From assembly GCA_002310015.1 (NCBI GenBank), contig DBYQ01000058.1:1-63380 (forward strand): a stretch of DNA of 63,380 nucleotides, written 5' to 3'. Every line of letters starts with the position of its first letter. Position 1 is the first letter of the stretch. The position numbers and the translations under genes are program-made. This DNA is from Bacteroidales bacterium UBA1182. GTDB taxonomy: Bacteria > Bacteroidota > Bacteroidia > Bacteroidales > Bacteroidaceae. Under the pieces are notes generated by a model, which saw only the letters and a list, made by a program, of their open reading frames with translations, made no database searches and had not been told where the DNA came from. Shown piece after piece: positions 2,624 through 50,096 of this stretch.

Positions 2624-3853
2624 ATGAAAGAGGAGCAGATTTTAATTCGGATTACGGGACAGGACCGGCCGGGACTGACGGCGGCGGTCATGGGGATTTT
2701 GGCAAAGTATGATGCTACGGTGCTGGACATCGGCCAGGCTGATATTCATAACACGCTGTCATTGGGCATTTTGATGCGTATGGACGAGATGAAGAGCGGC
2801 CTTGCTATGAAGGAGCTGCTGTTCAAGGCTACGGAGCTGGGCGTGAATATCGGTTTTTCTCCGATTAGCGACGATGAGTATGAGGATTGGGTAGGGCATC
2901 AGGGTAAGAACCGGTATATTTTGACTGTGCTGGGGCGTCAGCTTGAGGCTCGGCAGATTCAGGCAGCTACTCAAATTCTTGCTGATCAGGGGCTTAATAT
3001 TGATTCTATTCTTCGTCTTACGGGTCGGAAAAGTATTAAAAAACTTGATAAGCAGACGCGTGCTTGCATTGAATTTTCTTTGCGCGGCGAGCCGGTGGAC
3101 AGGCAGAAGATGCATGTTGAGCTGATGAAGATTTCGCAGCAGATGGAGATGGATTTCTCTTTCCAGAAGGACGATATGTTCCGCAGGATGAGGCGGTTAA
3201 TCTGTTTTGATATGGATTCTACGCTCATTCAGGCGGAGTGCATTGACGAATTGGCTGAGCGCAATGGCGTGGGTGCCCAGGTTCGCGCTATTACTGAGAG
3301 CGCGATGCGCGGTGAGATTGATTTCAAGGAGAGTTTTACTCGTCGTGTGGCGTTGCTTAAAGGACTGGATGTCAGTGTGATGCGTGATATTGCTGAGCAT
3401 CTGCCTATGACTGAGGGTGTGGACCGTCTGATGTCAGTTTTGAAGACTTGCGGGTATAAGATTGCTATTCTTTCTGGTGGATTTACGTTCTTTGGCGAGT
3501 ATCTGCAACGGCGTTATGGCATTGATTATGTGTACGCTAACGAGCTTGAGATAGGCGAGGACGGTAAATTGACCGGGCGATATGTGGGTGAGATTGTGGA
3601 TGGGCACAGGAAAGCTGAGTTGCTGCATCTGATTGCTCAGGTGGAGAAGGTGAATCTGGCTCAGACTATTGCTGTGGGCGATGGTGCAAATGCCCTGCCG
3701 ATGATCTCTGAGGCTGGTTTGGGAATTGCGTTCCATGCAAAACCGCGCGTTGTGGCCAATGCAGGGCAGAGTATCAATACCATCGGCCTTGATGGCGTTC
3801 TCTATTTCCTTGGCTTCAAGGATTCCTACCTTGGTGAGCAGGGCAAACTTTAA
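2624..3853 (+). CDS. serB: phosphoserine phosphatase SerB with N-terminal ACT-like domains
   Basis: HAD motif FDMDSTLI and GDGANALPMISEAGLGIAFHAKP. The N-terminal half is regulatory. Confidence 0.85.
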   Translation: MKEEQILIRITGQDRPGLTAAVMGILAKYDATVLDIGQADIHNTLSLGILMRMDEMKSGLAMKELLFKATELGVNIGFSPISDDEYEDWVGHQGKNRYILTVLGRQLEARQIQAATQILADQGLNIDSILRLTGRKSIKKLDKQTRACIEFSLRGEPVDRQKMHVELMKISQQMEMDFSFQKDDMFRRMRRLICFDMDSTLIQAECIDELAERNGVGAQVRAITESAMRGEIDFKESFTRRVALLKGLDVSVMRDIAEHLPMTEGVDRLMSVLKTCGYKIAILSGGFTFFGEYLQRRYGIDYVYANELEIGEDGKLTGRYVGEIVDGHRKAELLHLIAQVEKVNLAQTIAVGDGANALPMISEAGLGIAFHAKPRVVANAGQSINTIGLDGVLYFLGFKDSYLGEQGKL

Positions 3854-3887: not shown

Positions 3888-4639
3888 TATTTTTTGTTGT
3901 GTTCACGCCAGAATTTGTAAAGTTCCTCTCTTTCTTGTTTTATGGTTTCAACTGATGGGACATATCCTTTATTTTCATAGTATCGGAGCATTTCATCAAG
4001 ATAGTAATGTGATTTAGATTCGGTCTCATAGTCTATCTGATTCATGAAACGGGCTTTTTCAAGCAAGAACTCACGATACCGATTGATGCGTTCAAAAAGT
4101 TCTTTCGGTTTGGTATGTATGGTGATTGATGGATTTCCACAATCTCTTGCGAAAGTGATTTCTTTAATGTAGAAATAGTCACAATCTAGTGCGGCTTTTA
4201 CAAATTCGAAAATAAGGGTGTCGCCTGGATGAGGAACGGCGGGAAGTCCGAAACTGAAAGAACATGTTCGGCCATACTCAAAACCGGAAAACAGGAAGGT
4301 GCAGAGATTTTCACCTTCTGATGCAAATAATTGTGGCTTGGAATAGTTCAATTCAAACAGATCCTTATAGATGAGTGGAAGCCATTTGTTGATATTTTGA
4401 GGTGTTTCATTCAGCCTCTCTGCAATCCATTTAATGGTTAATTCCCTCTCCCTAGCTTCGCAAATGTCAGAATACCAATATTCAGCAATCTGAATAAAGC
4501 CTTCAATTATGTGCTCGTAAGGCTTTCCCTGCCCACTCAATAACCTGAGCCAGCGCGCCTCACTAAACAGACAGAATTTGATCTGTTTGTTTTTGGGGAC
4601 GTAATTCTCCAAAGCTGGGCAATCCATCTTTAAATCCAT
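3887..4639 (-). CDS. hypothetical protein (possible HTH segment), low-GC orphan
   Basis: 250-aa ORF with no family I recognise. ELTIKWIAERLNETPQNINKWL looks helix-turn-helix-like. The DNA is visibly more AT-rich than its neighbours. Confidence 0.5.
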   Translation of the reverse strand: MDLKMDCPALENYVPKNKQIKFCLFSEARWLRLLSGQGKPYEHIIEGFIQIAEYWYSDICEARERELTIKWIAERLNETPQNINKWLPLIYKDLFELNYSKPQLFASEGENLCTFLFSGFEYGRTCSFSFGLPAVPHPGDTLIFEFVKAALDCDYFYIKEITFARDCGNPSITIHTKPKELFERINRYREFLLEKARFMNQIDYETESKSHYYLDEMLRYYENKGYVPSVETIKQEREELYKFWREHNKK

Positions 4640-4668
4640 AGTTGTAGTGTTGGTTAGTATGTTGATAA

Positions 4669-5244
4669 TCAGAATAATATCCGATATGCATCGGCTTTTT
4701 TCTCCAGGGAGAGCGGGTAGGCGCGTGAGGTGGAGGGCATGCGGTAGAAGTCTATGGGGCGGACGATGTTGTTTTGACTGATTGGAATGCTTATGTTGAT
4801 TTTGCTTCCGATGGGCGGGATGGGGCAGTTGAAGGTGCTGGCGATGACTTCTGTGGCTTTTTGGCCGGTGGTGACTATGGTGGTACAGAGGGGAATTTGT
4901 TGGAGCAGTGATGGGATATCGGTCGGCGTTATTACCTCTAGGAAGGCATCGGAGGCATTGTCTTTCAGACGGCGGATTTGGGTGGCGGTGTCGTAGAAAG
5001 CCAGTCCGTTTTGTGTGCAGAAGTCTTTTATGGCTTGCTCATTGAAGCGTTTTTCTTTGATGATGCAGAAGTGGTCTTTATCATTGAAATGTATCAGGCC
5101 GATGATGCGCCAGAAGTCGTTGATCCAGTTGGGGTAATAGAACGGCATGCTCCAGCGGTGGGGCTGGGGCGGGAAACTGCCCAGAAACAGCATCCTGGCG
5201 TTCTCAGGCAAAAATGGCTCAAACGGGTGCTGCTCTATATCCAT
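4669..5244 (-). CDS. uracil-DNA glycosylase superfamily protein (hypoxanthine/deoxyinosine-DNA glycosylase-like)
   Basis: N-terminal LFLGSFPPQP...YYPNWINDFW pattern resembles the UDG-like hypoxanthine-DNA glycosylase family. Confidence 0.5.
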   Translation of the reverse strand: MDIEQHPFEPFLPENARMLFLGSFPPQPHRWSMPFYYPNWINDFWRIIGLIHFNDKDHFCIIKEKRFNEQAIKDFCTQNGLAFYDTATQIRRLKDNASDAFLEVITPTDIPSLLQQIPLCTTIVTTGQKATEVIASTFNCPIPPIGSKINISIPISQNNIVRPIDFYRMPSTSRAYPLSLEKKADAYRILF

Positions 5245-11465: not shown

Positions 11466-12626
11466 ATGGACGAGAATATGAACAATGCGCCTATGACGGA
11501 TGAAGGGGAGGGTATAGATATAATGGTGCTGGTAAAACAGCTATGGGACGGCCGTAAGACTGTAATAATCTGGACCTGTGTGTTCATGGCGTTAGGCCTG
11601 ATAGCCGCATTTACCATGATTCGTAAATACGAGGTGAGTACTGTAATGGTTCCCCAGCTGAACTCCAAGCAAAACGCATCATTGAGCAGTCTGGCATCAC
11701 TTGCGGGATTTGACTTGAGTACGGTCAATACGGGTAGTGAGCTATCGCCGCTTATCTATCCGCAGATTGTGGGCAGCGTTACTTTCATGAAAGAACTGAT
11801 GTACACTCCGCTTCATTATGCTAAGTGTGATACCGCTATCTGCATGTTTGATTATGCGCAGAGTGATTATGCCAAGCCTTCAGTGGTAGGTGCTATATTT
11901 GGAGGTTTAATAAAATATACCATCGGATTGCCGCGTGTGATCCTTAAAGCTATTAGAGGAGAGAAAGAGCCTATAGTATTACCTGAAGGTGAAGGTACGG
12001 CCGATAATACCCCCAAGCCAGTGGTTATAAGTGAGGATGAGGAGGAGATCCTTAAGGAACTTGCAGAAAATGTTTCACTTGCAGTTGATAAGAAAGAAGG
12101 TTATATCACTCTGAATGTAATAGGTTCAGAGCCTATACAGGCTGCGGAACTGGCCATGAAGGCGCAGCAACTGCTTCAGGAGGAACTTACACGTTTCCGT
12201 ATTGAGAAATCAGAAAGTGAGCTGGAATATATCCAGGCCCGTTATAATGAGATAAAATCGGAGACTGAGTCATATCAGGAGCAACTGGCCAGGATTACAG
12301 ACCGTTCACAAAGTGTGACCAATACACGTGACCGCATTGAGCGTGACCGCATCCAGACCAAGTACTCTATCTCAAGTTCCATTTACAGTGAACTGGCCAA
12401 GCAGTTGGAGCAGGCCAAGATGCAGGTTAAGAAGGATACTCCTGTGTTTACTGTAATCCAGCCTATTACTGTTCCTAATAAGCCTTCAAACAGCCGTGCA
12501 AAGACTCTTATCATATGGACGTTCTTTGGCGTGGTTTTGGGCTGTGGCGTGGTTCTGGGGAAGGAGTATTTGCCTAAGCTTTTGGCTCAGTTTAAAGACG
12601 AGGAGGAGGAAAAGATTGAAAATTGA
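11466..12626 (+). CDS. Wzz-like chain-length determinant protein (no kinase domain)
   Basis: N-terminal IDIMVLVKQLWDGRKTVII plus a TM segment, a coiled-coil middle and a C-terminal TM segment. The final residues KIEN and the stop are encoded by a heptamer array. Confidence 0.7.
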   Translation: MDENMNNAPMTDEGEGIDIMVLVKQLWDGRKTVIIWTCVFMALGLIAAFTMIRKYEVSTVMVPQLNSKQNASLSSLASLAGFDLSTVNTGSELSPLIYPQIVGSVTFMKELMYTPLHYAKCDTAICMFDYAQSDYAKPSVVGAIFGGLIKYTIGLPRVILKAIRGEKEPIVLPEGEGTADNTPKPVVISEDEEEILKELAENVSLAVDKKEGYITLNVIGSEPIQAAELAMKAQQLLQEELTRFRIEKSESELEYIQARYNEIKSETESYQEQLARITDRSQSVTNTRDRIERDRIQTKYSISSSIYSELAKQLEQAKMQVKKDTPVFTVIQPITVPNKPSNSRAKTLIIWTFFGVVLGCGVVLGKEYLPKLLAQFKDEEEEKIEN

Positions 12627-12835
12627 AAATTGAAAATTGAAAATTATAAAAAAGGTTCGGAAATTTTCCGAACCTTTTTTAATGTCGCGGGAATTAAAGC
12701 AGGTGTTTTTTTACGCAGGTGCTTGTAATTTTCAATTTTCAATTTTCAATTATGTAACTTCGTTCCATGATTTTTGTCACGACTCGGTCAAACAAGCAAG
12801 CTTGATGACTCTCGCTGCTCCAAAAATTTTCAATT
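12615..12835. repeat. heptamer-armed cassette H1 (module A plus module B)
   Basis: (ATTGAAA)x4 at 12615-12645, then a terminator hairpin, then the AATGTCGCGGG and TTACGCAGGTGC boxes, then (TTTTCAA)x3 at 12727-12751. Module B (cgttccatgatttttgtcacgactcgg...ctgctccaaaaattttcaatt) runs to 12835. Confidence 0.9.
12648..12680. terminator. bidirectional rho-independent terminator hairpin (cassette core)
   Basis: aaaaaaggttcggaaattttccgaacctttttt: an A-tract, a 9-bp stem and a T-tract, between convergent genes. Confidence 0.7.
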
Positions 12836-14408: not shown

Positions 14409-15392
14409 ATGACTCAAGGAAATGTACGTCCGGCCTCGATGGAGCGTATCACTACGCCCGCATTGGCCAAGAAATTCATTGATGAACAGATTAAGGAGCT
14501 CAGGGCTCAGATTGGTGACAAAAAGGTTCTGCTGGCACTGTCCGGTGGCGTGGATTCATCGGTAGTGGCTGCATTGCTCATTAAAGCGGTGGGCAAGCAG
14601 CTGGTTTCAGTGCATGTAAACCACGGACTGCTGCGCAAGGGCGAGCCCGAGCAGGTGGTGCGCGTGTTCCGCGATGAGTTGAACGCCAACCTGGTATATG
14701 TGGATGCCACTGACCGTTTCCTGAACAAGCTGGCCGGCGTGGCTGATCCAGAGCAGAAGCGCAAGATAATAGGCGCCGAGTTTATCCGCGTGTTTGAGGA
14801 GGAGGCACGCAAGCAGGAGGGTATCAGTTTCCTGGCCCAGGGTACCATCTATCCCGATATTGTGGAGTCAGGTCCCGTAAAGAGCCATCACAACGTGGGT
14901 GGTCTGCCCGATGACCTTAAGTTTGAGCTGGTGGAGCCTATCAAGCTGCTGTTCAAGGATGAGGTTCGCGTGGTAGGTAAGGAGCTTGGCCTGCCAGATA
15001 ACATGGTGTTCCGTCAGCCGTTCCCGGGCCCGGGTCTGGGCGTGCGCTGCACGGGTGCAATTACTAGAGACAGGTTAGAGGCCCTGCGTGAGAGCGATGC
15101 CATTCTGCGCGAGGAGTTTGCGGCTAATGGCTTGGAGGGCAAGGTTTGGCAGTACTTTACCATCGTGCCCGATTACAAGTCAACGGGCGTTAAGGATAAC
15201 AAGCGCAGCTGGGATTGGCCGGTGATCATCCGCGCCGTGAATACCCGGGATGCTATGACGGCTACTATTGAGGAGATTCCATACAAACTGTTGCACCATA
15301 TTACTCAGCGCATCATTACGGAGGTTCCGGGTGTGAATAGAGTGCTTTATGATTTGACTCCGAAACCTACGGGCACTATTGAGTGGGAGTAA
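14409..15392 (+). CDS. guaA: GMP synthase ATP-pyrophosphatase/dimerisation portion only (no GATase domain)
   Basis: SGGVDSSV PP-loop, HHNVGGLP and the canonical C-terminus TGTIEWE. Only 327 aa, with no class-I amidotransferase domain upstream. Confidence 0.8.
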   Translation: MTQGNVRPASMERITTPALAKKFIDEQIKELRAQIGDKKVLLALSGGVDSSVVAALLIKAVGKQLVSVHVNHGLLRKGEPEQVVRVFRDELNANLVYVDATDRFLNKLAGVADPEQKRKIIGAEFIRVFEEEARKQEGISFLAQGTIYPDIVESGPVKSHHNVGGLPDDLKFELVEPIKLLFKDEVRVVGKELGLPDNMVFRQPFPGPGLGVRCTGAITRDRLEALRESDAILREEFAANGLEGKVWQYFTIVPDYKSTGVKDNKRSWDWPVIIRAVNTRDAMTATIEEIPYKLLHHITQRIITEVPGVNRVLYDLTPKPTGTIEWE

Positions 15393-15394
15393 AA

Positions 15395-15954
15395 AATTGA
15401 AAATTGAAAATTGAAAATTGAAATTTTTTATCATGAGAGACAATGTTTTACATAGTAAAAGCAGAGATTTTGCTATACGCATTATTAACTGTTACAAATA
15501 TCTGAATAGTGAAAAACAGGAATATATCATGTCTAAACAACTTCTACGTTGTGGGACAAGTATTGGAGCTAATACTATAGAAAGTAAGAACGCTCAAAGT
15601 CGTCCTGATTTTCTAAGTAAACTCAATATTGCATTGAAGGAGGCCGATGAAACCAGTTACTGGTTGGACCTCCTTCATGTTTGCAATTATATTAATGACG
15701 AATCTTTCAACTCATTAGATAAGGATTGTCGTGAAATAATCGGTTTATTAACTACAATCATCAAAAGACTAAAACAATCAACTTTCTAATTTTCAATTAA
15801 CAACTTCGTTGTTGATTTTTGTCGCGTTCAATGGTCTTTACACCCCCTTCGTTTCCCCCGTTATCGGGGGACAGAAACGGGATAGCCCAAGCGAGCTTAG
15901 TCTCTCCTCTCACTGCTCCAAAAATTTTCAATTTTCAATTTTCAATTTTCAATT
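15395..15954. mobile_element. heptamer-armed cassette H2 carrying a four-helix-bundle gene plus module B
   Basis: (TTGAAAA)x4 at 15395-15425, the CDS at 15433-15789, an internal aattttcaatt at 15788-15798, module B with an extra insert, and (TTTTCAA)x4 ending at 15954. Same layout as H1, with the ORF in place of the terminator module. Confidence 0.6.
15433..15789 (+). CDS. four-helix-bundle protein (23S rRNA intervening-sequence protein / Avd-like family)
   Basis: SRDFAIRIINCYKYL, QLLRCGTSIGANTIES and ALKEADETSYWLDLL are characteristic of the four-helix-bundle S23p family. The DNA is markedly AT-rich. Confidence 0.8.
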   Translation: MRDNVLHSKSRDFAIRIINCYKYLNSEKQEYIMSKQLLRCGTSIGANTIESKNAQSRPDFLSKLNIALKEADETSYWLDLLHVCNYINDESFNSLDKDCREIIGLLTTIIKRLKQSTF

Positions 15955-16453
15955 AGATTGAGAGGCCGAAGGTTTTCTTGATGGGACTCATCACAAACAT
16001 GGACTGGATGGAGCCGACGGTATCGGTGGTGCCAAGGACGTTCATGATGAACTCCTTGTAGGAGCGCATATCGGGACAATATACTTTGAGCAGGTAGTCA
16101 AACTCACCGGAGATGTTGTAGCACTCAGCCACCTCTTTCATATTACGCGCGGCTTCCTCAAAGGTGTAGGCGGTCTCGCGGGTCATCTCGCGGAGCTTGA
16201 CGCAGCAGAACACCACAAAGCCCAGGTTGAGCTTCTCAGGGTCAAGCACTGCTATATACTTCTTTATATAGCCTTCGCGCTCCAAACGTTTCTGACGCTC
16301 AAACACCGGAGTGGTGGAGAGGTGCACCTTGGCGGCAAGTTCCTTGGTGGTGAGGCGTGAATTATCCTGCAGGCAGGTGAGGATTTTGATGTCTGTGGCG
16401 TCCAGTTCGCCGGCTTTTGGCTCGATTAGAGTTGAAATATTCTCCTTTTCCAT
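15953..16453 (-). CDS. Lrp/AsnC family transcriptional regulator
   Basis: DATDIKILTCLQDNSRLTTKELAAKVHLSTTPVFERQKRLEREGYIKKY HTH followed by a RAM domain. ATG at 16453 chosen; the longer ORF start is implausible. Confidence 0.85.
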   Translation of the reverse strand: MEKENISTLIEPKAGELDATDIKILTCLQDNSRLTTKELAAKVHLSTTPVFERQKRLEREGYIKKYIAVLDPEKLNLGFVVFCCVKLREMTRETAYTFEEAARNMKEVAECYNISGEFDYLLKVYCPDMRSYKEFIMNVLGTTDTVGSIQSMFVMSPIKKTFGLSI

Positions 16454-18009: not shown

Positions 18010-18927
18010 ATGCCTCTCAAACTGCCCGATAAACTGCCTGCAATAGAGATTCTTAAGGGGGAGAACATCTTTGTGATGGACACCTCAAGGGCATCGCATC
18101 AGGATATACGTCCGTTGCGTATTGTCATCTTGAACCTGATGCCCATAAAGATTACGACAGAGACAGACCTGATACGTCTGCTCTCAAATACGCCTTTGCA
18201 GATTGAGCTTAAGCTGATGAAACTGCGCAGTCATACATCGAAAAACACCCCCGTGGAGCATATGAGGGTGTTTTATCAGACGTTTGAGAGCTTACGTGAT
18301 GAGAAATTTGACGGCTTTATCATAACCGGAGCTCCGGTGGAGCATATGGAGTTTACGGATGTGGAGTACTGGAATGAGCTGACCGAGATTATGGATTGGG
18401 CCAGGACTCATGTGACATCGACCCTGTATATTTGTTGGGCCGCGCTTGCCGGACTGTATCATTTTTACGGAGTGCCCAAGTATCAGCTCAAGAACAAGAT
18501 GTTCGGTATTTTCAAGCACAATACCACCCGTGAGCCGCTGCCTATCTTCCGCGGTTTTGATGATGAGTTCTATGCTCCTCACAGCCGTCATTCTGAGCTG
18601 CGTCGTGATGATATTCTGAGCCATCCTGACCTCAAGCTGCTCTCTGAGTCCGATGAGGCCGGGGTGTTCATGGTATCGGCACGTAATGGTCGTGAGATTT
18701 TCATTACCGGTCACTTTGAGTACTCTCCTGATACTCTTGACAAGGAGTACAAGCGTGACTTGGATAAGGGGCTTCCGATAGATATTCCCAAGCACTATTA
18801 CCGGGGCGATGATCCGTCTCAGGGGCCTTTGGACCGGTGGCGGGCTCATGCCAATCTGTTCTATCAGAATTGGCTTAATTATTATGTTTATCAGGAGACT
18901 CCGTATAACCTTCAGGACATTAGGTAA
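18010..18927 (+). CDS. metA: homoserine O-acyltransferase (MetA family)
   Basis: MPLKLPDKLPAIEIL, LRIVILNLMP, FDGFIITGAPVE and ICWAA match the MetA family. Confidence 0.85.
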   Translation: MPLKLPDKLPAIEILKGENIFVMDTSRASHQDIRPLRIVILNLMPIKITTETDLIRLLSNTPLQIELKLMKLRSHTSKNTPVEHMRVFYQTFESLRDEKFDGFIITGAPVEHMEFTDVEYWNELTEIMDWARTHVTSTLYICWAALAGLYHFYGVPKYQLKNKMFGIFKHNTTREPLPIFRGFDDEFYAPHSRHSELRRDDILSHPDLKLLSESDEAGVFMVSARNGREIFITGHFEYSPDTLDKEYKRDLDKGLPIDIPKHYYRGDDPSQGPLDRWRAHANLFYQNWLNYYVYQETPYNLQDIR

Positions 18928-19100
18928 ATTGAAAATTGAGAATTGAAAATTGAGAATTGAAAATTGAAAATTGAAAATTGTAAAAAGCCTTCGAAATGGA
19001 TTTCGAAGGCTTTTTAATGTCGCGGGCTATTACGCAGATATTTGTAACGCAGGTGCTTGTTAATTTTCAATTTTCAATTTTCAATTCTCAATTTTCAATT
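18927..19100. repeat. heptamer-armed cassette H3 (module A)
   Basis: Eight TTGA(A/G)AA units at 18927-18979, a hairpin, the AATGTCGCGGG box, two ACGCAG(G/A)T boxes, and TTTTCAA/TTCTCAA units at 19062-19100. Confidence 0.9.
18982..19015. terminator. bidirectional terminator hairpin (cassette core)
   Basis: aaaaagccttcgaaatggatttcgaaggcttttt. The stem sequence differs from the other cassettes but keeps the same architecture. Confidence 0.65.
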
Positions 19101-19141
19101 TATACTTATAATTCAGTATTGATAATGCAGGGGATTGGTTG

Positions 19142-19168: not shown

Positions 19169-21598
19169 ATGACTCTGAGGGAACTTAAGATAGGTGAGAG
19201 TGCTGTGATTGCCTCGGTTGGAGGTGAGGGGGCACTGAGGCAGCATTTTCTGGATATGGGGTTGCTGCCGGGCGTGGAGGTTAAGCTTTTGAAGTTTGCT
19301 CCGATGGGTGATCCGATGGAGCTTCTGGTTCGCGGATACACTCTTTCTCTCCGTCTTGAAGAAGCATCTCAAATTACAGTTGACGCACCGGATGGCAGCC
19401 AACAGCCCGAAAAAACAGTACCAAAGGGGTCTGACCCCAATGGTACTGTTTTTGAAAAAAAGGTACCATTGGGGTCAGACCCCTTTGGTACTGTTTTGGT
19501 CGATTTTGGGTATAATTTGTCTTTGCATGAGCATAACTCTCATCCGGGTTTGGGTGAGGCTGGTAAGTATCATGATGCTACTCATGAGAATGCGGTTCCT
19601 AAGGGTACGGTGTTGAGGTTTGCTTTGGCCGGTCAGCAGAATTGCGGCAAGACTACCTTGTTTAATCAGCTTACGGGTTCTAATCAGCATGTGGGTAATT
19701 TCCCGGGTGTGACTGTAGATAGAAAGGATGGGCAGATTAAGGGGCATCCGGATACTCTTGTCACAGACTTACCTGGTATATATTCTTTATCGCCTTACAC
19801 GCAGGAGGAGACGGTTTCACGCCAGTTCATTATTGAGCAGAAGCCTAACTGCATTATCAATATCGTCGATGCTACAAACATTGAACGCAACCTGTATCTG
19901 ACGGTTCAGCTCATGGAGCTGGGTGTGCCTATGGTGCTGGCTCTCAATATGATGGACGAGCTGACGGGTAATGGCGGATCGGTCCGCGTGAATGAGATGG
20001 AGCGAATCCTGGGTATTCCGGTGGTTCCGATATCGGCCGCAAAGGGCGAGGGTATCAAGGAGCTTGTGGAGCACGCCATTCATGTGGCTGAGTATCAGGA
20101 GGTTCCGGCCAGGACCGATTTCTGCACAAAGGATGATCACGGGGGTGCTGTTCACCGTTGCCTGCACAGCATAATGCATCTGGTTGAGGACCACACCGAA
20201 AGGGCTGGCATTCCGGGCCGATTCGCAGCCGGCAAGCTTGCTGAGGGCGATGCTCAAGTGCTTGAACAGCTACAACTTACACAGAACGAGAAAGAAACGA
20301 TGGAACACATAATCCTGCAGATGGAGGAGGAGCGTGGGATGGACCGCGCGGCTGCCATTGCAGATATGCGTTTCTCGTTTATTGAGCGCCTTTGCTCGCA
20401 GACGGTTGTCAAGCCGCAGAAGAGCAAAGAGTATATAAGGAGTCGCCGCATTGACCGCGTTCTGACCGGCCGATGGACAGCAATTCCAATCTTCCTGATA
20501 GTGATGTGCCTGGTGATATGGCTCTCAATCGATGTGTTGGGTGCACCGCTGCAGGATTGGCTTGACCAGCTGATTCAGGGCCTGGCAGGCATCTGTGTGG
20601 CTGGTATGGAGAAGGCCGATATTTCACCTGCAATCATATCGCTTGTTGAGGATGGCATTTTTGGCGGCGTGGGAAGCGTGCTGAGCTTTGTGCCTATCAT
20701 CATAATCCTGTTCTTCTTCCTTAGTCTGATTGAGGACAGCGGATATATGGCACGTATCGCGTTTGTGACCGATAAGCTGCTGCGTAAACTGGGTCTGTCG
20801 GGTCGTTCTATCGTGCCGTTGCTCATCGGCTTTGGCTGTTCTGTTCCGGCGGTTATGGCCACTAGAACGTTGCCATCGGCCCGTGACAGAAAGATGACCA
20901 TTCTGCTCACTCCGTTTATGAGCTGCAGCGCCAAGATTCCTATTTACGGATTCTTTACCAATGCGTTTTTCCCGGGCAAGGGCGGTCTGATTCTGGCCGG
21001 CTTGTACCTGCTGTCGATATTTGTAGGCGTGATTGTGGCGCTGGTGACCAAACTTTTCCGCAAGAATTACGTGGCTGCGCCGTTTGTGATGGAGCTGCCC
21101 AATTACCGCATGCCGGGACTCAAGAATGTGAGCCATCTGCTTTGGGACAAGACGAAGGACTTTGTGCAGAGGGCGTTCACGGTGATATTCGTGGCGACGA
21201 TCGTGATTTGGCTGCTGCAGACGTTTGATTTCCGATTCAATATGGTGGAGAACGGCGAGGGTAGCATGATGGCCTGGGTTGCTGGCGTGCTGGAGCCGCT
21301 GTTCCGTCCGCTGGGCCTTGGCGATTGGCGCATTGTTACCTCTTTTGTAAGCGGTTTCCTGGCTAAGGAGAGCGTGGTTGCTACGATGGAGGTGCTTGGC
21401 GTGACCGAGTCGCTGACTGTTATTACCGCTGTTCCGATGCTCATATTTAGCCTGCTCTACACGCCTTGCGTTGCTGCAATCAGCAGCGTTCGCCGCGAAC
21501 TTGGTGACAGGTGGGCAATCTATGTCGTAATCTTCCAGTGCGTCATCGCCTGGGTTGTGGCTTGGTTTGGTTATTTAATAGCACAGGCAGTATTATGA
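19169..21598 (+). CDS. feoB: ferrous iron transporter, FeoA-FeoB fusion
   Basis: The N-terminal FeoA domain ends ...LRLEEASQITV. FeoB G-domain LAGQQNCGKTTLFNQLTG and NFPGVTVD, followed by the polytopic membrane part. A REP doublet sits in frame in the linker. Confidence 0.9.
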   Translation: MTLRELKIGESAVIASVGGEGALRQHFLDMGLLPGVEVKLLKFAPMGDPMELLVRGYTLSLRLEEASQITVDAPDGSQQPEKTVPKGSDPNGTVFEKKVPLGSDPFGTVLVDFGYNLSLHEHNSHPGLGEAGKYHDATHENAVPKGTVLRFALAGQQNCGKTTLFNQLTGSNQHVGNFPGVTVDRKDGQIKGHPDTLVTDLPGIYSLSPYTQEETVSRQFIIEQKPNCIINIVDATNIERNLYLTVQLMELGVPMVLALNMMDELTGNGGSVRVNEMERILGIPVVPISAAKGEGIKELVEHAIHVAEYQEVPARTDFCTKDDHGGAVHRCLHSIMHLVEDHTERAGIPGRFAAGKLAEGDAQVLEQLQLTQNEKETMEHIILQMEEERGMDRAAAIADMRFSFIERLCSQTVVKPQKSKEYIRSRRIDRVLTGRWTAIPIFLIVMCLVIWLSIDVLGAPLQDWLDQLIQGLAGICVAGMEKADISPAIISLVEDGIFGGVGSVLSFVPIIIILFFFLSLIEDSGYMARIAFVTDKLLRKLGLSGRSIVPLLIGFGCSVPAVMATRTLPSARDRKMTILLTPFMSCSAKIPIYGFFTNAFFPGKGGLILAGLYLLSIFVGVIVALVTKLFRKNYVAAPFVMELPNYRMPGLKNVSHLLWDKTKDFVQRAFTVIFVATIVIWLLQTFDFRFNMVENGEGSMMAWVAGVLEPLFRPLGLGDWRIVTSFVSGFLAKESVVATMEVLGVTESLTVITAVPMLIFSLLYTPCVAAISSVRRELGDRWAIYVVIFQCVIAWVVAWFGYLIAQAVL
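19418..19491. repeat. REP doublet inside the feoAB coding sequence
   Basis: gtaccaaaggggtctgaccccaatggtac (19418-19446) and gtaccattggggtcagacccctttggtac (19463-19491). Translated as VPKGSDPNGTVFEKKVPLGSDPFGTV. Confidence 0.9.
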
Positions 21599-24223: not shown

Positions 24224-24329
24224 ATTGAAAATTTTTGGAGCAGTGAGAGCCATCAAGCTTGCTTGTTTGGCCGAGTCGCGACAAAAATCAACAACGAAGT
24301 TGTTAATTGAAAATTGAAAATTGAAAATT
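24223..24329. repeat. heptamer-flanked cassette H4 (module B only)
   Basis: aattgaaaatttttggagcagtgagagccatcaagcttgcttgtttggccgagtcgcgacaaaaatcaacaacgaagttgttaattgaaaattgaaaattgaaaatt. It is the reverse complement of the module B seen in H1. Confidence 0.9.
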
Positions 24330-25437: not shown

Positions 25438-25582
25438 AATTGAGAATTGAAAATTGAAAATTGAAAATTACATGCACTTGCGTAAAAAGCACCTGCGTTA
25501 ATTCCCGCGACATTAAGAAAGGGTTCGGAGACTTCCGAACCCTTTCTTATAATTTTCAATTTTCAATTCTCAATTTTCAATT
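25438..25582. repeat. heptamer-armed cassette H5 (module A, inverted relative to H1)
   Basis: Left arm aattgagaattgaaaattgaaaattgaaaatt, then gcacctgcgtta and cccgcgacatt boxes, a hairpin, and right arm aattttcaattttcaattctcaattttcaatt. Confidence 0.9.
25515..25548. terminator. bidirectional terminator hairpin (cassette core)
   Basis: aagaaagggttcggagacttccgaaccctttctt between convergent genes. Confidence 0.6.
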
Positions 25583-32331: not shown

Positions 32332-33515
32332 CAGCAATGATATTTGTAAGAAAGGCGATCAGGAGATGTGTGTTATTTGCATTTCTCCTCATTATGGTTT
32401 CATGTGAAAAGACTCAGGACCTTAGGAATGATACGACAAAAACCGTGTTGGTTTATATGGCCGCAGACAATAATCTTTCAGCTTTTGCCCGGAGGAACAT
32501 CTATTCAATGCGTAGTTCCATGGGCTCTGACCTGGATTTTGCCAACCTGCTGGTTTTTGTTGACAGACAAAGTGTAAATCCCGTGCTGTTGCACATTCAT
32601 GACTACAGGATTGATACCGTTAAGGTTTATGATAAACTGAACAGCGCGGATGCATCGGTACTGAAGGAGGTCATTGAAACTGTAACAGATAACTGGAAGG
32701 CCGAATCCTATGGCCTGGTCTTGTGGTCACACGGTATGGCATGGGTGCCTAAACCGCAGATGCATACTATTGCAAGTGACCAAGGATGGGCCCCGATGCG
32801 TGAGAGACCCAAGACAAAGACTTTTGCCGCAGAAAACCTGCCTGACGACAAATACACCTGTATGGAGATTGATGATCTTGTTGATGCCATTCCGGAGGGA
32901 GTATTTGATTACATTGCATTTGATGCATGTTATATGGGCAGTGTGGAGGTGGCTTATGCACTGAGGAACAAGACTAAATACATTATATCATCCAGCTGTG
33001 AGATTGTGGATGAGGGCTTTCCGTATGGGACCGTTACACGTGATTTCATAAACGGCAATCTCCTGAAGATGTGCAGCGAGTTCTATTCATATTATAACAG
33101 GCAATCAGGATGGCATCAGACTGCAAGCATATCGCTGGTTGATACGGATGGTCTGGATAGCCTTGCCAGGTGTTTCAGGAAGATAGTAGCTGCACATAAG
33201 AGTGAGATTCCCACATTGGACATAAGTGACATACAGCATTGTGACAGATTTAACAAACACATAATGTTTGACCTGGAGGATTTTGTGGATAAACTGGGAA
33301 CAGAGAGGGATGACCTTATGGAATTCCGCCTTCAGCTTGAAAAATGCATACTGTATAAGAATGCCACTCCATATATATGTCTGGATGATCCAAAGTGGAT
33401 AAAGATGGTATCATTCAGCGGATTAAGCGTCTATATTCCTTTGGAGACTTTTGAGGCATCGGGACTTAATGATGATTATCGGGATACGGAATGGAGTCGG
33501 GATACGGAGTATTAA
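32328..33515 (+). CDS. clostripain-family (C11) cysteine peptidase lipoprotein
   Basis: VLVYMAADNNLS, VLWSHGMAW (His) and FDACYMGSVEVAY (Cys). Lipobox MVSC. ATGA overlap with the upstream gene. Confidence 0.75.
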   Translation: MTAMIFVRKAIRRCVLFAFLLIMVSCEKTQDLRNDTTKTVLVYMAADNNLSAFARRNIYSMRSSMGSDLDFANLLVFVDRQSVNPVLLHIHDYRIDTVKVYDKLNSADASVLKEVIETVTDNWKAESYGLVLWSHGMAWVPKPQMHTIASDQGWAPMRERPKTKTFAAENLPDDKYTCMEIDDLVDAIPEGVFDYIAFDACYMGSVEVAYALRNKTKYIISSSCEIVDEGFPYGTVTRDFINGNLLKMCSEFYSYYNRQSGWHQTASISLVDTDGLDSLARCFRKIVAAHKSEIPTLDISDIQHCDRFNKHIMFDLEDFVDKLGTERDDLMEFRLQLEKCILYKNATPYICLDDPKWIKMVSFSGLSVYIPLETFEASGLNDDYRDTEWSRDTEY

Positions 33516-33546
33516 GAATTAAGAATTGAAAATTGAAAATTGAAAT
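33514..33546. repeat. solo heptamer array H6
   Basis: aagaattaagaattgaaaattgaaaattgaaat directly after the C11 stop, with no internal module. Confidence 0.85.
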
Positions 33547-33577: not shown

Positions 33578-35902
33578 ATGAAGAAGCTTTTGACGTTTAC
33601 AGTCCTGCTTGGTGCGGGGCTGATTGTATTTGGTTGCAAGGGGGATCCTACATTGCCTCGTGATGTTAAGAATTACGATGATCCGCTCATGCAGCATGAG
33701 AAAGAGATATCGGGCATAATAAGCAAGATGACACTTGAGGAGAAGGTGGCAATGCTGCACGGCAAGCATATGTTTACATCTGAGGGTGTTCCGTCACAGG
33801 GTATTGCCGATATGGTTTATGCCGACGGTCCCTTTGGTATCCGTGAGGAGATGGAACCTCATTCATGGAACTCTCTGCATCTTACTACAGACTCTGCCAC
33901 TTTCTTCCCTACAGGATCGGCCCTGGCTGCAACCTGGAGTGATGGGATAGCTTATCTTTATGGAACAGGTATGGCCCGTGAGGCCCGTCTGCGTGGTAAG
34001 GATATGATTTTAGGACCTGCTATCAATATCCAGCGTATTCCTACCGGCGGACGTACATACGAGTATCTGAGTGAGGATCCGTATCTGAGTTCAGTGCTGT
34101 CAGTAGCATATACCAAAGGTGTTCAGAACAACGGCGTGGCTGTTTGTGTAAAGCATTTTGCACTGAATAACCAGGAGACCAACCGCGGTAGTGTGAACGT
34201 TATTGTAAGCCCGCGTGCCATGCGTGAGATATATCTGCCTCCGTTTGAGGCAACAGTGGTTGAGGGTAACGCATTCGGTGTGATGTCGGCTTACAACAAG
34301 ATCAACGGTTACTGGTGTGCCGAGAACTATGAGTTGCTTAACTCTATCCTGCGTAAGGACTGGGGATTCAAGGGTATGGTGATATCAGACTGGGGCGGCA
34401 CTCACAGCACTGTCGAGTCTGTCGTTGCCGGTCTGAACGTGGAGATGCCTAACTCTCAGTATCTGGGCCAGGCTCTGCTGGATTCAGTTGCAGCCGGTGC
34501 TGTGTCTGAGGATGTTATCGATGAGCGTGTGCGTGAGATTCTGCGCGTGCGCCTGGCTGTTGACCCGGTCCCTGAGAATAAGGCAAATGTTGAGATGACT
34601 GCCAAACCTGAGCAGGCTCAGATTGCATATCAGGTGGCTTTACAGTCTATAGTTCTGCTTAAGAATGAAGGCAGTCTGTTGCCTATAGATTTGAATAAGG
34701 TCAAGACTATTGCCGTAATAGGTGATAATGCCGACAAGATTATGGCTACAGGTGGAGTAGGTGCCGGTGTAAAGGCTCTGTATGAGATTACTCCTCTGGC
34801 CGGTCTTAAGAACCGTATTGGTGATAAGGCCAAGATTGTTTATGCCCAGGGTTATACTTCACAGCAGGCTCGCGGTGGATTTGGAGGATTCGGTGGTGGT
34901 TTTGGCGGTTTTGGCCGTCGTGGCGGTGCTACTGCTACTCCCGCTAAGCCTGACGATACTGCCAAGAAGCTGCAGGATGAGGCTGTAAAGGTAGCCAAGA
35001 GTGCCGATATGGTGCTGTTCATCGGTGGTGATAACCGTTCACATGAGACTGAGGGTAGTGACCGCCGCAGCATGGATCTGCCTTATAATCAGGAAAATGT
35101 GCTTGAGGCAGTAGCTAAGGTCAATCCCAACGTGGTATTCATTGCAGTTGCAGGCGCTCCGGTTGACCTTAACCGTGTTCAGGCCTGCTGTCCTGCAATT
35201 GTCCAGTCATGGTTTAACGGTACAGAGGGTGGCAATGCTTTGGCTGATATTCTTACGGGTGAGTCTTCACCGAGCGGCCGTCTGCCTTTCTCATATCCCT
35301 TCAATCTTGAGGACAGCCCCGCATATGCCACAGGCAGTTTTCCGCAGACCGATGCTCCCGTAAATCAGGATGTATTTGTATCACTGGTTCAGGAGGACAG
35401 CAAGGCTGAGGAGATGCTTAAAGGCGCTACCGGTCGTGGCACAGCTCTCTACAGCGAGGACATGCTGGTGGGTTACCGCTGGTTTGATACCAAGCAGAAG
35501 CCGGTGATGTATCCTTTCGGTTACGGACTGGGTTATTCTGAGATTGAGTATTCAGACTTTGCCGCAGACAAGAGTGAATATCGTGACGGTGAAGTAATTA
35601 CAGTGACATTAAAGGCCCATAATAAAGGCAAATATGTACAGTGTGATGTTCCGCAGGTATATGTACACCGTGTTGATTCAAAGATAGAATGGCCTTACAA
35701 GGAGCTTAAGGGATTCACTAAGACAGTGATTTATATTAATCCGGATCCCACCGATGTGGAAATAAAAATACCGGTTGAGTCACTCAAGTACTGGGATGAG
35801 GCCAAACATGATTGGGTTCTGGAGCCCGGTAAGATTGAACTGCTGCTGGCTCATGATGCCGGCAATGTGGCAGGCAAAGTTGAATTGAGAATTGAGAATT
35901 GA
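33578..35902 (+). CDS. glycoside hydrolase family 3 (beta-glucosidase-like) lipoprotein
   Basis: GPAINIQRIPTGGRTYEYLSEDPYL, KHFALNNQE and VISDWGG (nucleophile Asp). The inter-domain linker contains ARGGFGGFGGGFGGFGRRGG. The C-terminus LRIEN and the stop are encoded by a heptamer array. Confidence 0.85.
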   Translation: MKKLLTFTVLLGAGLIVFGCKGDPTLPRDVKNYDDPLMQHEKEISGIISKMTLEEKVAMLHGKHMFTSEGVPSQGIADMVYADGPFGIREEMEPHSWNSLHLTTDSATFFPTGSALAATWSDGIAYLYGTGMAREARLRGKDMILGPAINIQRIPTGGRTYEYLSEDPYLSSVLSVAYTKGVQNNGVAVCVKHFALNNQETNRGSVNVIVSPRAMREIYLPPFEATVVEGNAFGVMSAYNKINGYWCAENYELLNSILRKDWGFKGMVISDWGGTHSTVESVVAGLNVEMPNSQYLGQALLDSVAAGAVSEDVIDERVREILRVRLAVDPVPENKANVEMTAKPEQAQIAYQVALQSIVLLKNEGSLLPIDLNKVKTIAVIGDNADKIMATGGVGAGVKALYEITPLAGLKNRIGDKAKIVYAQGYTSQQARGGFGGFGGGFGGFGRRGGATATPAKPDDTAKKLQDEAVKVAKSADMVLFIGGDNRSHETEGSDRRSMDLPYNQENVLEAVAKVNPNVVFIAVAGAPVDLNRVQACCPAIVQSWFNGTEGGNALADILTGESSPSGRLPFSYPFNLEDSPAYATGSFPQTDAPVNQDVFVSLVQEDSKAEEMLKGATGRGTALYSEDMLVGYRWFDTKQKPVMYPFGYGLGYSEIEYSDFAADKSEYRDGEVITVTLKAHNKGKYVQCDVPQVYVHRVDSKIEWPYKELKGFTKTVIYINPDPTDVEIKIPVESLKYWDEAKHDWVLEPGKIELLLAHDAGNVAGKVELRIEN

Positions 35903-36017
35903 AAATTCTTGGAGCAGTGAGAGGAGAGACTAAGCTCGCTTAGGCTATCCCGAGTCGCGACAAGAATCATGGAACGAAGTGACATAATTGAGAATTGAGT
36001 TTTCAGTTTTGCAATTT
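35883..36017. repeat. heptamer-flanked cassette H7 (module B)
   Basis: aattgagaattgagaattgaaaatt, then cttggagcagtgagaggagagactaagctcgcttaggctatcccgagtcgcgacaagaatcatggaacgaagtgacat, then aattgagaattgag and degenerate ttttcagttttgcaattt. Confidence 0.9.
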
Positions 36018-47537: not shown

Positions 47538-50096
47538 ATGAGAAAGATTTTATTAGTCCTAAGCGTGTTTGCGCTTACGTGTGCATCGGCCATTGCTGCC
47601 GATAACAAAGGCATTTCATTTAATGAATTATCCGGTGACAGATTTACCCTTATTGAGAACGGCAAACCCGTGCAGATTCTGGCCGATGAGGCTGATAAGA
47701 GCGGTGTTCAGATTGCTCTGAAGGCTTTGCAGAAGGATTTCAAGGCTGTAGCAGGGCAGGAGGCTAAGGTGATTTATGATGCAGCCGGCATAAGCGGTAA
47801 GCCTGTGATTGTAGGTACAATTGACAGCAAGTACATTGCCCAGATTATCAAGGCTAAGAAGATCAACAAGAAGGATCTGCAGGGCAAGCGTGAAAAGTAC
47901 ATCATGACTGTTGTGGAGAATCCTATCAAGGGTATTGATGAGGCTATGGTGATTGCAGGTAGCGATATGCGCGGTGCCATTTACGGTATATATGAATTGT
48001 CTGAGCAGATTGGCGTATCTCCCTGGTACTACTGGGCTGACGTTCCAATTGAGCATCAGGATAACATTTCATTGGCTAAGGGCACTTATACCGCAGGTGA
48101 GCCTGCAGTGACCTATCGTGGCATATTCCTGAATGATGAGGCTCCGTGCCTTACCACATGGGTCAAGAATACATTCGGCACACAGCGCGGCGGACATGAG
48201 TTCTACGCATGCTGCTTTGAACTGATCCTGCGTCTGCGCGGTAACTTTATGTGGCCCGCCATGTGGGACTGGGCATTCTATGCTGATGATCCTGAGAACT
48301 CCAAGACAGCCAATGACATGGGCGTGATAATGGGAACATCTCACCATGAGCCGATGGCCCGCAACCATCAGGAATGGGCCCGTAACCCCAAGGCATACGG
48401 CGGCCAGTGGGACTATACCACCAACAAGCAGGAGCTGCAGAGGTTCTTCCGTGAGGGCGTGGAGCGCGCCAAGAATACCGAGGACCTTATTACTATAGGT
48501 ATGCGCGGTGACGGCGATGCCGAACTGCGCGGCAGCGACGAGGACAATATGAAGATGCTGGAGGGCCTCTTTGCCGACCAGCGCCAGATAATCAAGGAGG
48601 TAACCGGAAAGCCTGCCGAGCAGCGTCCGCAGGTATGGGCACTCTACAAGGAGGTTCAGACCTATTATAACAAGGGTTTGCGCGTGCCTGACGATGTGAT
48701 CATCCTTTTGTCCGATGACAACTGGGGCGATATCCGCCGTCTGCCCAATGCCGAGGAGCGCAAGCGTAAAGGCGGCTGGGGTATGTACTATCATGTGGAC
48801 TATGTAGGTGCACCGCGTAACTCAAAGTGGTTGAATATCACTCCGATACAGCACCTTTGGGAGCAGATGCAGCTTACATACGATTACGGAGTTGACAAAA
48901 TCTGGGTGCTTAATGTTGGTGACCTCAAGCCTATGGAGTATCCCATCACACTGTTCCTGGATATGGCCTGGAACCCCACATCATTCACCGTTGACAACCT
49001 GCTGGATCACACCTACGAGTTCTGCAAGGAGTTCTTCGGTGAGGAGGAGGCTCAGGAGGCTGCTCGCATACTGAACCTTTGCTGCAAGTACAACGGCCGT
49101 ATAAGCGCCGAGATGCTTGATGCCCGTCAGTACTACACACTTGAGACCGGTGAGTTTGAGCAGGTTTGCGATGATTACGCACGTCTGGAGGCTGAGGCTC
49201 TGCGTCAGTATCTGAGACTCAAGCCTGAGTACCGCGATGCTTATCAGCAGATAATACTGTTCCCCGTACAGGCTATGGGTAACATCTATGACATGTACTA
49301 CAGCCAGGCCATGAACCAGAAGCTGGCCCGCAACAATGATCCGGCTGCAAACTACTGGGCTGAGCGTTGCGAGCGTGACTTTAAGCGTGATGCCGAGCTC
49401 TGCGCCTATTATAATAAGGAGATGGCCGGCGGCAAGTGGAACGGCATGATGATCCAGAAGCACATTGGCTATACATCATGGAACGATAATTTCCGCGCCG
49501 ATACACAGCCGCGCGTAAGCCGCGTTGAGGTGGGAGAGAAGAATGGAGGATACGTTTTCACTCAGAAGGATGGCGTTGTTGCCATGGAGGCTGAGCACTA
49601 CTATTCACAAAATGCAGTTACCACCGGTTCAGCCAAGTGGACTACAATTCCTTTCATGGGCCGAACGCTGTCAGGCGTGGCTTTGATGCCTTACAGCCAG
49701 CCTACCGATGGCGCCAGCATGACCTATAAGTTCAATCTTAATGATGATGTTGATAATCTCTCAGCTGTGATTGCAGTTAATGCCACATTGACATTCTACC
49801 GTCTTGAGGGACACCGCTACATGGTAAGCCTGGATGGCGGTCAGGAGGTTGAAGTTGTGTTCAATGAGCGTCTGAATGAGGATCAGCGTAACATTTACTC
49901 AGTTTACTATCCCACAGTTGCTACCCGTGTCAAGGATGACCGCGTACAGCTGGGCAAGGCTGCCAAGGGCGAGCATACACTGACTATCCGTCCTATTGAG
50001 CCGGGAACCGTGTTTGAGAAGGTTGTGATTGATGCTGGCGGGTATATTAAGAGCTATCTCTTCATGCCGGAGTCTCCGTACGTCAGGGAAAATTGA
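47538..50096 (+). CDS. glycoside hydrolase family 115-like protein (alpha-glucuronidase)
   Basis: Signal peptide. GSDMRGAIYGIYELSEQIGVSPWYYWADVP and YRGIFLNDEAP blocks as in GH115. The last codons and the stop fall in a heptamer array. Confidence 0.65.
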   Translation: MRKILLVLSVFALTCASAIAADNKGISFNELSGDRFTLIENGKPVQILADEADKSGVQIALKALQKDFKAVAGQEAKVIYDAAGISGKPVIVGTIDSKYIAQIIKAKKINKKDLQGKREKYIMTVVENPIKGIDEAMVIAGSDMRGAIYGIYELSEQIGVSPWYYWADVPIEHQDNISLAKGTYTAGEPAVTYRGIFLNDEAPCLTTWVKNTFGTQRGGHEFYACCFELILRLRGNFMWPAMWDWAFYADDPENSKTANDMGVIMGTSHHEPMARNHQEWARNPKAYGGQWDYTTNKQELQRFFREGVERAKNTEDLITIGMRGDGDAELRGSDEDNMKMLEGLFADQRQIIKEVTGKPAEQRPQVWALYKEVQTYYNKGLRVPDDVIILLSDDNWGDIRRLPNAEERKRKGGWGMYYHVDYVGAPRNSKWLNITPIQHLWEQMQLTYDYGVDKIWVLNVGDLKPMEYPITLFLDMAWNPTSFTVDNLLDHTYEFCKEFFGEEEAQEAARILNLCCKYNGRISAEMLDARQYYTLETGEFEQVCDDYARLEAEALRQYLRLKPEYRDAYQQIILFPVQAMGNIYDMYYSQAMNQKLARNNDPAANYWAERCERDFKRDAELCAYYNKEMAGGKWNGMMIQKHIGYTSWNDNFRADTQPRVSRVEVGEKNGGYVFTQKDGVVAMEAEHYYSQNAVTTGSAKWTTIPFMGRTLSGVALMPYSQPTDGASMTYKFNLNDDVDNLSAVIAVNATLTFYRLEGHRYMVSLDGGQEVEVVFNERLNEDQRNIYSVYYPTVATRVKDDRVQLGKAAKGEHTLTIRPIEPGTVFEKVVIDAGGYIKSYLFMPESPYVREN

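Follow-up and report, generated by a model that had tools for sequence, protein, structure and literature searches.

The closest described counterparts of the element analyzed here are the intervening sequences (IVSs) of bacterial 23S rRNA genes that carry an S23p open reading frame (ORF). In Coxiella burnetii, the S23p ORF of the 23S IVS follows tandem heptamers, which comprise two or three full GACAGAT repeats, depending on the strain, and then one degenerate GACAGAA; the termini of the IVS form a 28-bp stem that RNase III cuts where the first repeat begins, as seen in vitro and by rapid amplification of cDNA ends, and the ORF is decaying and apparently untranslated while the IVS itself persists (PMC4990558). 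The corresponding protein family (PF05635/TIGR02436) is very large, with 9633 clusters at 50% identity recovered in a single-sequence search, and has no known function outside diversity-generating retroelements (DGRs), the Avd proteins of which belong to the same superfamily (PMC10053308). The rRNA insertions of bacteria of the candidate phyla radiation contain PF05635 ORFs as well, and rRNA IVSs have so far been regarded as a peculiarity of rRNA genes. Here we describe H2, a cassette found in a 63,380-nt stretch of DNA (hereafter, the window) from Bacteroidales bacterium UBA1182 (contig DBYQ01000058.1, assembly GCA_002310015.1). H2 (positions 15393-15954) consists of a 118-codon PF05635/TIGR02436 gene placed between the inverted arrays (TTGAAAA)x4 and (TTTTCAA)x4. 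What is new is the location of an apparently IVS-type cassette between protein-coding genes, in the company of sibling cassettes that lack the ORF and bear a terminator.

The arrangement of sequences at H2 is compact. The stop codon of guaA (TAA, 15390-15392) is immediately followed by the 5′ arm (15393-15429; plus strand, as are all parts of the cassette), which is composed of AAAA, three TTGAAAA units and one TTGAAAT (15397-15424), and TTTTT. An 8-nt leader, TTTTTATC, separates the heptamer array from the ATG (15433) of the four-helix-bundle gene (15433-15789), which is co-oriented with guaA and lacks an evident promoter; by eye, no Bacteroidetes-type promoter motif is seen in the 40 nt before the ATG. 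On the 3′ side, a single TTTTCAA unit (15791-15797) precedes module B (15798-15922), a small element discussed below, and then comes the 3′ arm (15923-15954) with its four TTTTCAA units (15925-15952), so that the order of the parts is x4 - gene - x1 - module B - x4. The minus strand of the 3′ arm reads TAA-(TTGAAAA)x4 and abuts the TAA stop codon (15953-15955) of the convergent, minus-strand gene asnC. In a repeat search, the arms are delineated as 15395-15429 and 15920-15954, each 35 nt long, 97% complementary and 490 nt apart; complementary termini enclosing the element, one of the features by which IVSs are recognized, are accordingly present in H2. The minimum-free-energy fold of the RNA pairs the two arms in a 29-bp stem (z = -9.7). 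Our sequence, repeat and profile searches hence confirm what an earlier note on this DNA, made from the sequence alone, had described: an AT-rich gene for a four-helix-bundle protein, located between inverted heptamer arms that are able to pair.

The H2 protein is a member of the S23p/23S_rRNA_IVP four-helix-bundle family. It matches PF05635 with 96.7 bits (cut-off 33.8) over residues 4-107 and TIGR02436 with 109.7 bits (cut-off 24), and shows homology to PDB entry 2RLD (E = 6e-37, residues 1-115) as well as a match to 2GSC (E = 0.022). Both entries contain 5 chains and, by analogy with these relatives, the H2 protein would be a homopentameric toroid. No catalytic domain was found in the protein, no transposase or recombinase is encoded by the cassette, the only ORF of which is that of the 118-aa protein, and the PADLOC and PHROGs libraries contain no match for it. 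The gene differs sharply in composition from its surroundings, with a GC content of 32.5% overall and 27.7% at third codon positions, as opposed to 54.5% and 64.3%, respectively, for guaA and 51-55% overall for the neighbouring genes. Comparison with a 92%-identical homolog (L010; labels of this form denote the compared contigs and loci) yields 0.45 synonymous substitutions per site (dS) and a ratio of nonsynonymous to synonymous substitutions (dN/dS) of 0.08, so the protein is under purifying selection.

Like the S23p-ORF IVSs of Coxiella and Leptospira (PMC4990558), H2 encodes a protein of the PF05635 family in the sense orientation of the host transcript, with no evident promoter of its own. 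In the Coxiella-type IVS and in H2 alike, the inverted termini are ~28 bp long and built of tandem heptamers of strain-variable copy number (4 x 7 = 28 in H2), and both kinds of elements are sporadically distributed, suggesting horizontal spread, and exist in ORF-less versions. The analogy to rRNA IVSs that the earlier note had drawn is thus strongly supported by the S23p ORF, heptamers and RNase III-cut 28-bp stem of the Coxiella IVS. Unlike rRNA IVSs, however, H2 follows the stop codon of a protein-coding gene, most of its relatives lie between two cistrons, and H2-type arms also enclose terminator modules at other sites of the window. Furthermore, the protein that decays in Coxiella is maintained by purifying selection in H2.

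Several other systems share particular features with H2. Tandem TAACTGA heptamers, which are located beside start codons in Beggiatoaceae, Cyanobacteria and Bacteroidetes and have been hypothesized to bind a post-transcriptional regulator (PMC4679880), resemble the H2 arrays in the 7-nt unit, the mostly intergenic location by start codons or over gene ends, the stop codons provided in all three frames in one orientation only, and the variable copy number, but they were described as direct repeats without a partner array and with no link to four-helix-bundle genes, whereas arrays of the H2 type form inverted pairs around cargo and have a strong association with PF05635 genes. Miniature inverted-repeat and repetitive extragenic palindromic elements of the REPIN-RAYT type are, like the H2 family, dispersed intergenic inverted-repeat cassettes, one version of which is coding and has the same ends, with presence/absence polymorphism; unlike in these elements, the H2 gene encodes a 118-aa helical bundle without a nuclease or recombinase fold, the ends are tandem heptamers rather than a unique palindrome, and no target-site duplication was identified. 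Avd has a homologous pentameric four-helix-bundle fold and binds nucleic acid and a partner enzyme, but the H2 gene is solitary and heptamer-flanked, with neither a reverse transcriptase nor a pair of template and variable repeats (TR/VR). Apart from the Coxiella IVS, the literature searched yielded no connection between heptamer arrays and four-helix-bundle genes.

To assess the generality of this layout, we made a scan with one genome per species, which yielded 80 loci encoding relatives 33-92% identical to the H2 protein, mainly from Bacteroidota but also from Clostridia, Saccharibacteria, Verrucomicrobiota, Planctomycetota and Acidobacteriota metagenome-assembled genomes. Full flanks were available for 77 loci, and in each of these, inverted repeats were scored between the 150 nt on the upstream and those on the downstream side of the gene, using as the threshold the 99th percentile of 2218 controls of the same geometry. 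Inverted flanks exceeded this threshold in 61 of the 77 loci, and the best tandem period of the arms was 7 in nearly all cases (8 in a Flectobacillus/Cytophagales group), with a median of ~4 copies per arm. Unambiguous arrays on both sides were present in 35 loci, in 27 of which the units on the two sides are reverse complements of each other, with at most one mismatch. These 35 loci contain 22 distinct units that fall into 10 clusters (e.g., GGAATTC, ATGAGTT, CAGAGTG, CGGAAAA and TAGGAGT). The arms are therefore complementary even though their sequence is lineage-specific, and inverted heptamer arms are the rule for PF05635 genes across phyla. The same layout surrounds 7-8 of 12 homologs found on viral contigs. 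The expectation of the earlier note that other four-helix-bundle genes would be bounded by heptamer arms plus module B was borne out for the arms but not for module B, which was not found in any other lineage.

The cassettes tend to be wedged between cistrons. In 30 of 36 loci, no more than 10 nt separate the upstream stop codon from the edge of the 5′ arm (median gap 0), and in 23 of 32, the ATG of the next gene follows the 3′ arm at a distance of at most 10 nt (median 6). The genes are co-oriented with their neighbours in 135 of 152 pairs, compared with 191 of 252 other adjacent pairs in the same loci (p = 0.001), a bias consistent with transcription by read-through. Among 30 arrays located more than 200 nt from the gene, 14 share the unit of the local IVP arms, against 1.6 expected from permutation. 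In 34 of the 35 loci, it is the 5′ array that is purine-rich; we considered this polarity as a means of fixing the orientation of the cargo and rejected the idea because inverted repeats present the purine arm first on both strands, so that the bias shows only an R...Y rather than a Y...R arrangement. As a separate observation, locus L028 contains two paralogs 1 kb apart (3001-3354 and 4344-4682) with different units, GTTGAAA/GTGAAAA versus TAGGTAA.

The layout extends to GC-rich Proteobacteria. Starting from the 2GSC sequence (XCC0516), we found a PF05635 gene between accB and accC in five genera of Xanthomonadales, namely, Xanthomonas, Dyella, Dokdonella, Stenotrophomonas and Lysobacter; the encoded proteins (L182-L187, L202 and L203) are 84-100% identical to the crystallised protein over residues 35-123. 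The arms of this cassette have the form (GGGAATN)x4 and (N′ATTCCC)x4, and the ATG of accC follows the last ATTCCC unit directly in four of these genera but after 10 nt in Lysobacter. In the alignment of the two arms, 91% of cells pair, compared with 35-65% when the register is slid, and compensatory changes are seen at three pairs. Pairing is best with a slip of one unit, which leaves TATTCCC and the ATG unpaired; no obvious Shine-Dalgarno sequence of accC could be seen by eye in the flank.

Comparison of strains reveals a separate history of the H2 cassette. The identical 118-aa protein is encoded on 19 contigs, mostly from rumen metagenomes. Taken between its two arms, the cassette is 99-100% identical among rumen strains, with flanks that are 78-96% identical. 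Between strains, the nucleotide identity of the H2 gene is 99.2-100%, as opposed to 83-94% for the 3′ end of guaA, 86-98% for asnC and 91-95% for metY, and in 50-nt windows, the identity jumps from 78-92% to 100% at the 5′ arm and drops again in asnC. Given the dS and dN/dS values for L010, synonymous sites are free to change, so the identity of the gene among strains does not reflect constraint at the nucleotide level; together with the diverged flanks, this indicates that the cassette has recently spread among diverged strains. Relatives with GuaA proteins 91-96% identical to that of the window have neither an array nor an IVP gene after the guaA stop codon. The cassette is thus a discrete, arm-bounded unit with foreign composition and its own evolutionary history. 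The 5′ arm itself varies among strains, from four to seven uninterrupted units, some strains having an interrupted extra pair.

Module B is a later, independent insertion into the 3′ arm. The earlier note had treated it as part of the element, but in sister strains (L001, L002, L003, L005 and L007), the identical gene is directly followed by a TTTTCAA array, which in L001, L003 and L007 shows that the unit at 15791-15797 is the first of the original 3′ arm, cut off by the insertion. A short form of module B is present in L004, L006 and L009, whereas module B with a 52-nt insert occurs only in the window strain. This nested insert (15827-15878), which contains the hairpin CCCCCGTTATCGGGGG and replaces the ACTC of the short form, is unique to the H2 copy in the window and was found elsewhere only in L008, a chimeric contig from the same strain. 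L008 had been considered as an alternative context of the gene and was rejected because it is a chimera assembled from four pieces of the window genome, with junctions in or close to repeats, a warning for inference of genomic context from short-read assemblies.

Insertion and cargo polymorphism, which the earlier note had suggested looking for among strains, was observed at orthologous sites. The site upstream of feoA is the most telling: it contains a cassette with a terminator module (module A) in the window (18925-19102, plus strand, with arms of x7 and x5 units), module A in inverted orientation in L005, an IVP gene flanked by TTTTCAA arms in L010, a different element of ~250 nt in L001 and L003, and nothing in L178-181, thereby providing an informative empty-site comparison. 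At the H1 locus, module A (terminator and GTCGCGGG box) occupies window positions 12644-12728 and, in the opposite orientation within the same arms, positions 3712-3795 of L001. No target-site duplication could be identified: the occupied junctions, TAA-AAAA[arm] and [arm]-TTTT-AAAATACTC, were compared with the empty TAA-TAAATACTC across different species. The ~250-nt element has inverted ends, GGGGGTATTGACGTCAAAACTACGCG ... CCAATACCCCC, and was detected in L001 (9390-9590), L003, L098, L100, L101 and L105, at the feoA-upstream site in some strains and beside asnC in others.

The interpretation that we favour, with somewhat better than even confidence, is that H2 is an IVS-type cassette residing outside rRNA, namely, a promoterless S23p/IVP gene within inverted arms of ~4 heptamers, inserted directly after the stop codon of the co-oriented guaA. 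Under this scenario, the gene would be transcribed by read-through from guaA, and the arms would pair in the transcript, forming a ~28-bp duplex from which the ORF is looped out and which, as in rRNA IVSs, could serve as a substrate for RNase III. In the DNA itself, the arms may act as boundaries for exchange or flipping of cargo, probably through recombination between arrays. Because the arms are reverse complements of each other, an incoming cassette could enter by recombination in both orientations, and the inverted module A would thereby be explained. Finally, read in the forward direction, TTGAAAA provides TGA in all three frames, whereas the reverse reading provides no stop; in this way, the purine-rich arm offers stop codons to genes entering from either side, so that gene ends tolerate the insertion. 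The stop codon of the Wzz-like ORF upstream of H1 is supplied by the heptamer array.

A number of observations weigh against this interpretation. H2 is not inside an rRNA gene: it is flanked by guaA and asnC, and nowhere in the window does an Rfam family attain its gathering score, with only weak, chance-level matches at E<=1. The transcription of the cassette, the pairing of its arms in vivo and their cleavage by RNase III are predictions. The tight spacing to stop codons and ATGs may reflect functional juxtaposition or may merely be a by-product of insertion into short operon spacers. Selection on sense-strand RNA should leave more G:U than A:C mismatches in the arms, but there are 50 of each and hence no signal of selection specifically on an RNA duplex; the complementarity of the arms could be kept by a process acting on DNA. 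In the accB-accC arms, the hexamer core GGGAAT is retained at 229 of 240 positions across genera while the seventh base is variable, which hints at sequence recognition beyond pairing, possibly by the protein itself. A clean empty guaA-asnC junction was not found, as gene order differs among relatives, and in a metagenome scan anchored at asnC, the 3′ neighbour of this gene also differs in most relatives. Metagenome assemblies, moreover, can be chimeric at repeats, as L008 is.

Some of these observations would fit a mobile element acting at the DNA level, an explanation that we regard as possible but rather unlikely. The arrays would then be terminal protein-binding repeats akin to the sub-terminal repeats of some transposons, the IVP pentamer would bind with about one subunit per heptamer and, with the help of host recombination or replication, move or exchange its own cassette and, in trans, the ORF-less ones with the same arms, RNA pairing being incidental. 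The ~4 units per arm and the pentameric state of the solved relatives (2RLD and 2GSC) are compatible with such binding, as are the conserved hexamer core with its free seventh base in Xanthomonadales, the sharing of the resident gene's unit by distant arrays and the different heptamers of the two paralogs in L028, whereas mobility is suggested by the identity island bounded by the arms, the inversion of module A between strains at one locus and the different cargo at one site; the lack of a G:U bias fits as well. Yet, the protein has no catalytic domain and no counterpart in defence or phage libraries, the ORF-less cassettes have only the heptamers in common with the gene cassette, and there is no identifiable target-site duplication. 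The long vertical retention at accB-accC across an order, and also in Paludibacteraceae, argues against frequent movement, and the excess of co-orientation with host genes is not something that a DNA-only element needs. Mobilisation of anything by the protein is, at present, unsupported. Still less probable, in our view, is a regulatory device, in which a TRAP-like ring of the protein on the purine-rich RNA array would control the arm duplex next to the stop codon, start codon or terminators of the neighbour, tuning termination, processing or translational coupling, with the other arrays as its regulon. The contact of the arms with the upstream stop and the downstream ATG, the unpaired TATTCCC and ATG of accC with no evident Shine-Dalgarno sequence, the same arms around intrinsic terminators at at least five sites in the window and the purifying selection on the protein would all make sense for such a device, for which the regulator-binding hypothesis on TAACTGA repeats (PMC4679880) offers a precedent. 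This support is entirely indirect, however, and the host genes are unrelated in function; the Coxiella IVS persists although its ORF is decaying and apparently untranslated, and the foreign composition and strain polymorphism better fit a selfish element.

Two further explanations fare considerably worse. Heptamer repeats are known in Bacteroidetes and cyanobacteria (PMC4679880), and the 391 kb of loci analyzed contain 30 heptamer arrays away from IVP genes, so one could imagine an ordinary resident gene that lies by coincidence beside slippage-prone simple repeats common in these genomes. This is very improbable in the face of the 61 out of 77 loci with inverted flanks above the 99th percentile of controls, the complementarity of the arms despite the differing units of different lineages, and the recurrence of the layout in GC-rich Proteobacteria and the Coxiella IVS. 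That the gene is the Avd accessory factor of a DGR remnant, as the shared superfamily might suggest (PMC10053308), is hardly credible: a reverse transcriptase is not among the neighbours within 6 kb, and a TR/VR pair is likewise missing; apart from parts of the cassettes, the only direct repeats within +/-5 kb are two short (25-29 nt) pairs with 72-76% identity. The statement of the earlier note that no reverse transcriptase, recombinase or TR/VR is nearby accordingly holds for the neighbours and repeats analyzed.

Whichever process maintains them, the heptamer arms provide the PF05635 family with a concrete, testable nucleic-acid partner, and sequence-specific binding of its own heptamers by the protein is the most testable guess to emerge from this analysis. 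An ORF flanked by inverted tandem-heptamer arms of ~28 bp turns out to be the usual form in which these genes occur between ordinary cistrons, in Bacteroidota and Xanthomonadales as well as in other phyla. This ties IVSs to operon biology, for example, through the conserved accB-accC insertion, and gives a starting point for explaining the tandem heptamer repeats of several phyla. A bolder proposal, which we put forward as speculation that is considerably more likely to fail than to hold, is that PF05635 pentamers are sequence-specific readers of their own heptamers. The gene and its arms would constitute a self-contained intervening cassette for any transcribed spot that tolerates a looped-out insertion, be it an rRNA helix, the gap between a stop and a start codon, or a 3′ end; the arms would rejoin the two sides of the insertion (the halves of the rRNA, or the upstream stop with the downstream start), and the protein would govern pairing, processing or spread, including that of ORF-less cassettes with the same unit. 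If true, this would provide a single account of rRNA IVSs, thousands of orphan four-helix-bundle genes, and the heptamer repeats of Bacteroidota, cyanobacteria and Beggiatoaceae.

The window as a whole, H2 included, is rich in heptamers of the same family, well above what chance would produce. A 21-mer of three heptamers has 35 matches with at most two mismatches, versus none in 100 shuffles. The 15 period-7 arrays are all members of one family, and no array in the window has a period of 5, 6, 8, 10 or 11. The inventory comprises five module A cassettes within the same arms, four copies of module B and two solitary arrays. Cyanobacterial short tandemly repeated repetitive (STRR) sequences are likewise intergenic tandem heptamers, and small repeats inserted in cyanobacterial heptamer arrays were reportedly described by Elhai in 2008, a possible parallel to module B. 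Module A consists of a bidirectional terminator hairpin and, after it, AATGTCGCGGG and ACGCAGGTGC repeats. Its cassettes are located in H1 (12612-12751, plus strand), upstream of feoA as described above, and at 25438-25582 (opposite orientation, minus strand), 50093-50207 and 58294-58436 (both plus strand). H1 as a whole (12612-12835) has the order x4 - module A - x3 - module B - x1, its module B copy and the final TTTTCAA unit occupying 12752-12835 (plus strand). The claim of the earlier note that H1 and H2 have the same layout holds for the arms, which are the same in both, but the unit counts differ, with three internal units and one terminal in H1 against one internal and four terminal in H2, and module B of H2 contains the 52-nt insert. 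Nor did we find support for the proposal that the short cassettes are non-autonomous derivatives of the gene cassette: only the heptamer arrays are common to both, the sequence just inside the arms differs, with no shared sub-terminal sequence, and an origin by internal deletion is unsupported. The heptamer and terminator region at 12632-12678 gives a sub-threshold match, probably due to chance, to the Rfam family RF02596 of cyanobacterial heterocyst small RNAs (23.8 bits against a gathering score of 35.7, E = 0.14).

Module B (~75 nt) is made up of a 5′ hairpin with a T-run, a GTCGCG box and a second hairpin, CCAAGCGAGCTTAG. All six distinct copies that we aligned lie inside a pyrimidine-rich (Y) arm and are oriented alike, with TCAATT on one side and TTYTCAATT on the other. 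The two remaining copies in the window are on the minus strand, at 24230-24329, with heptamer units on its flanks, and at 35882-35996, within a heptamer array. The GTCGCG box following a hairpin and T-run is common to module A (AATGTCGCGGG) and module B (TTTTTGTCGCGAC), and was located at 12682-12691, 15817-15826, 19017, 50144, 58366 and, on the minus strand, 25504. The two solitary arrays (33511-33545 and 59800-59849) have no inverted partner, and the latter is followed by a period-9 array of GAATTATCT x2.5.

Within 6 kb of H2, the window encodes capsule-export genes, adk, guaA, asnC, metY, metA and feoAB. Positions 19409-19497 contain two adjoining 42-nt inverted copies (GAAAAAACAGTACCAAAGGGGTCTGACCCCAATGGTACTGTTTT) that are 95% complementary, and a similar hairpin is present beside asnC in L094. 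GuaA (14409-15392) is a stand-alone 327-aa ATP-pyrophosphatase/C-terminal part, and a separate glutamine amidotransferase (GATase) gene is located near guaA in relatives (L170, 1331-2071), indicating that GMP synthase is split in this lineage.

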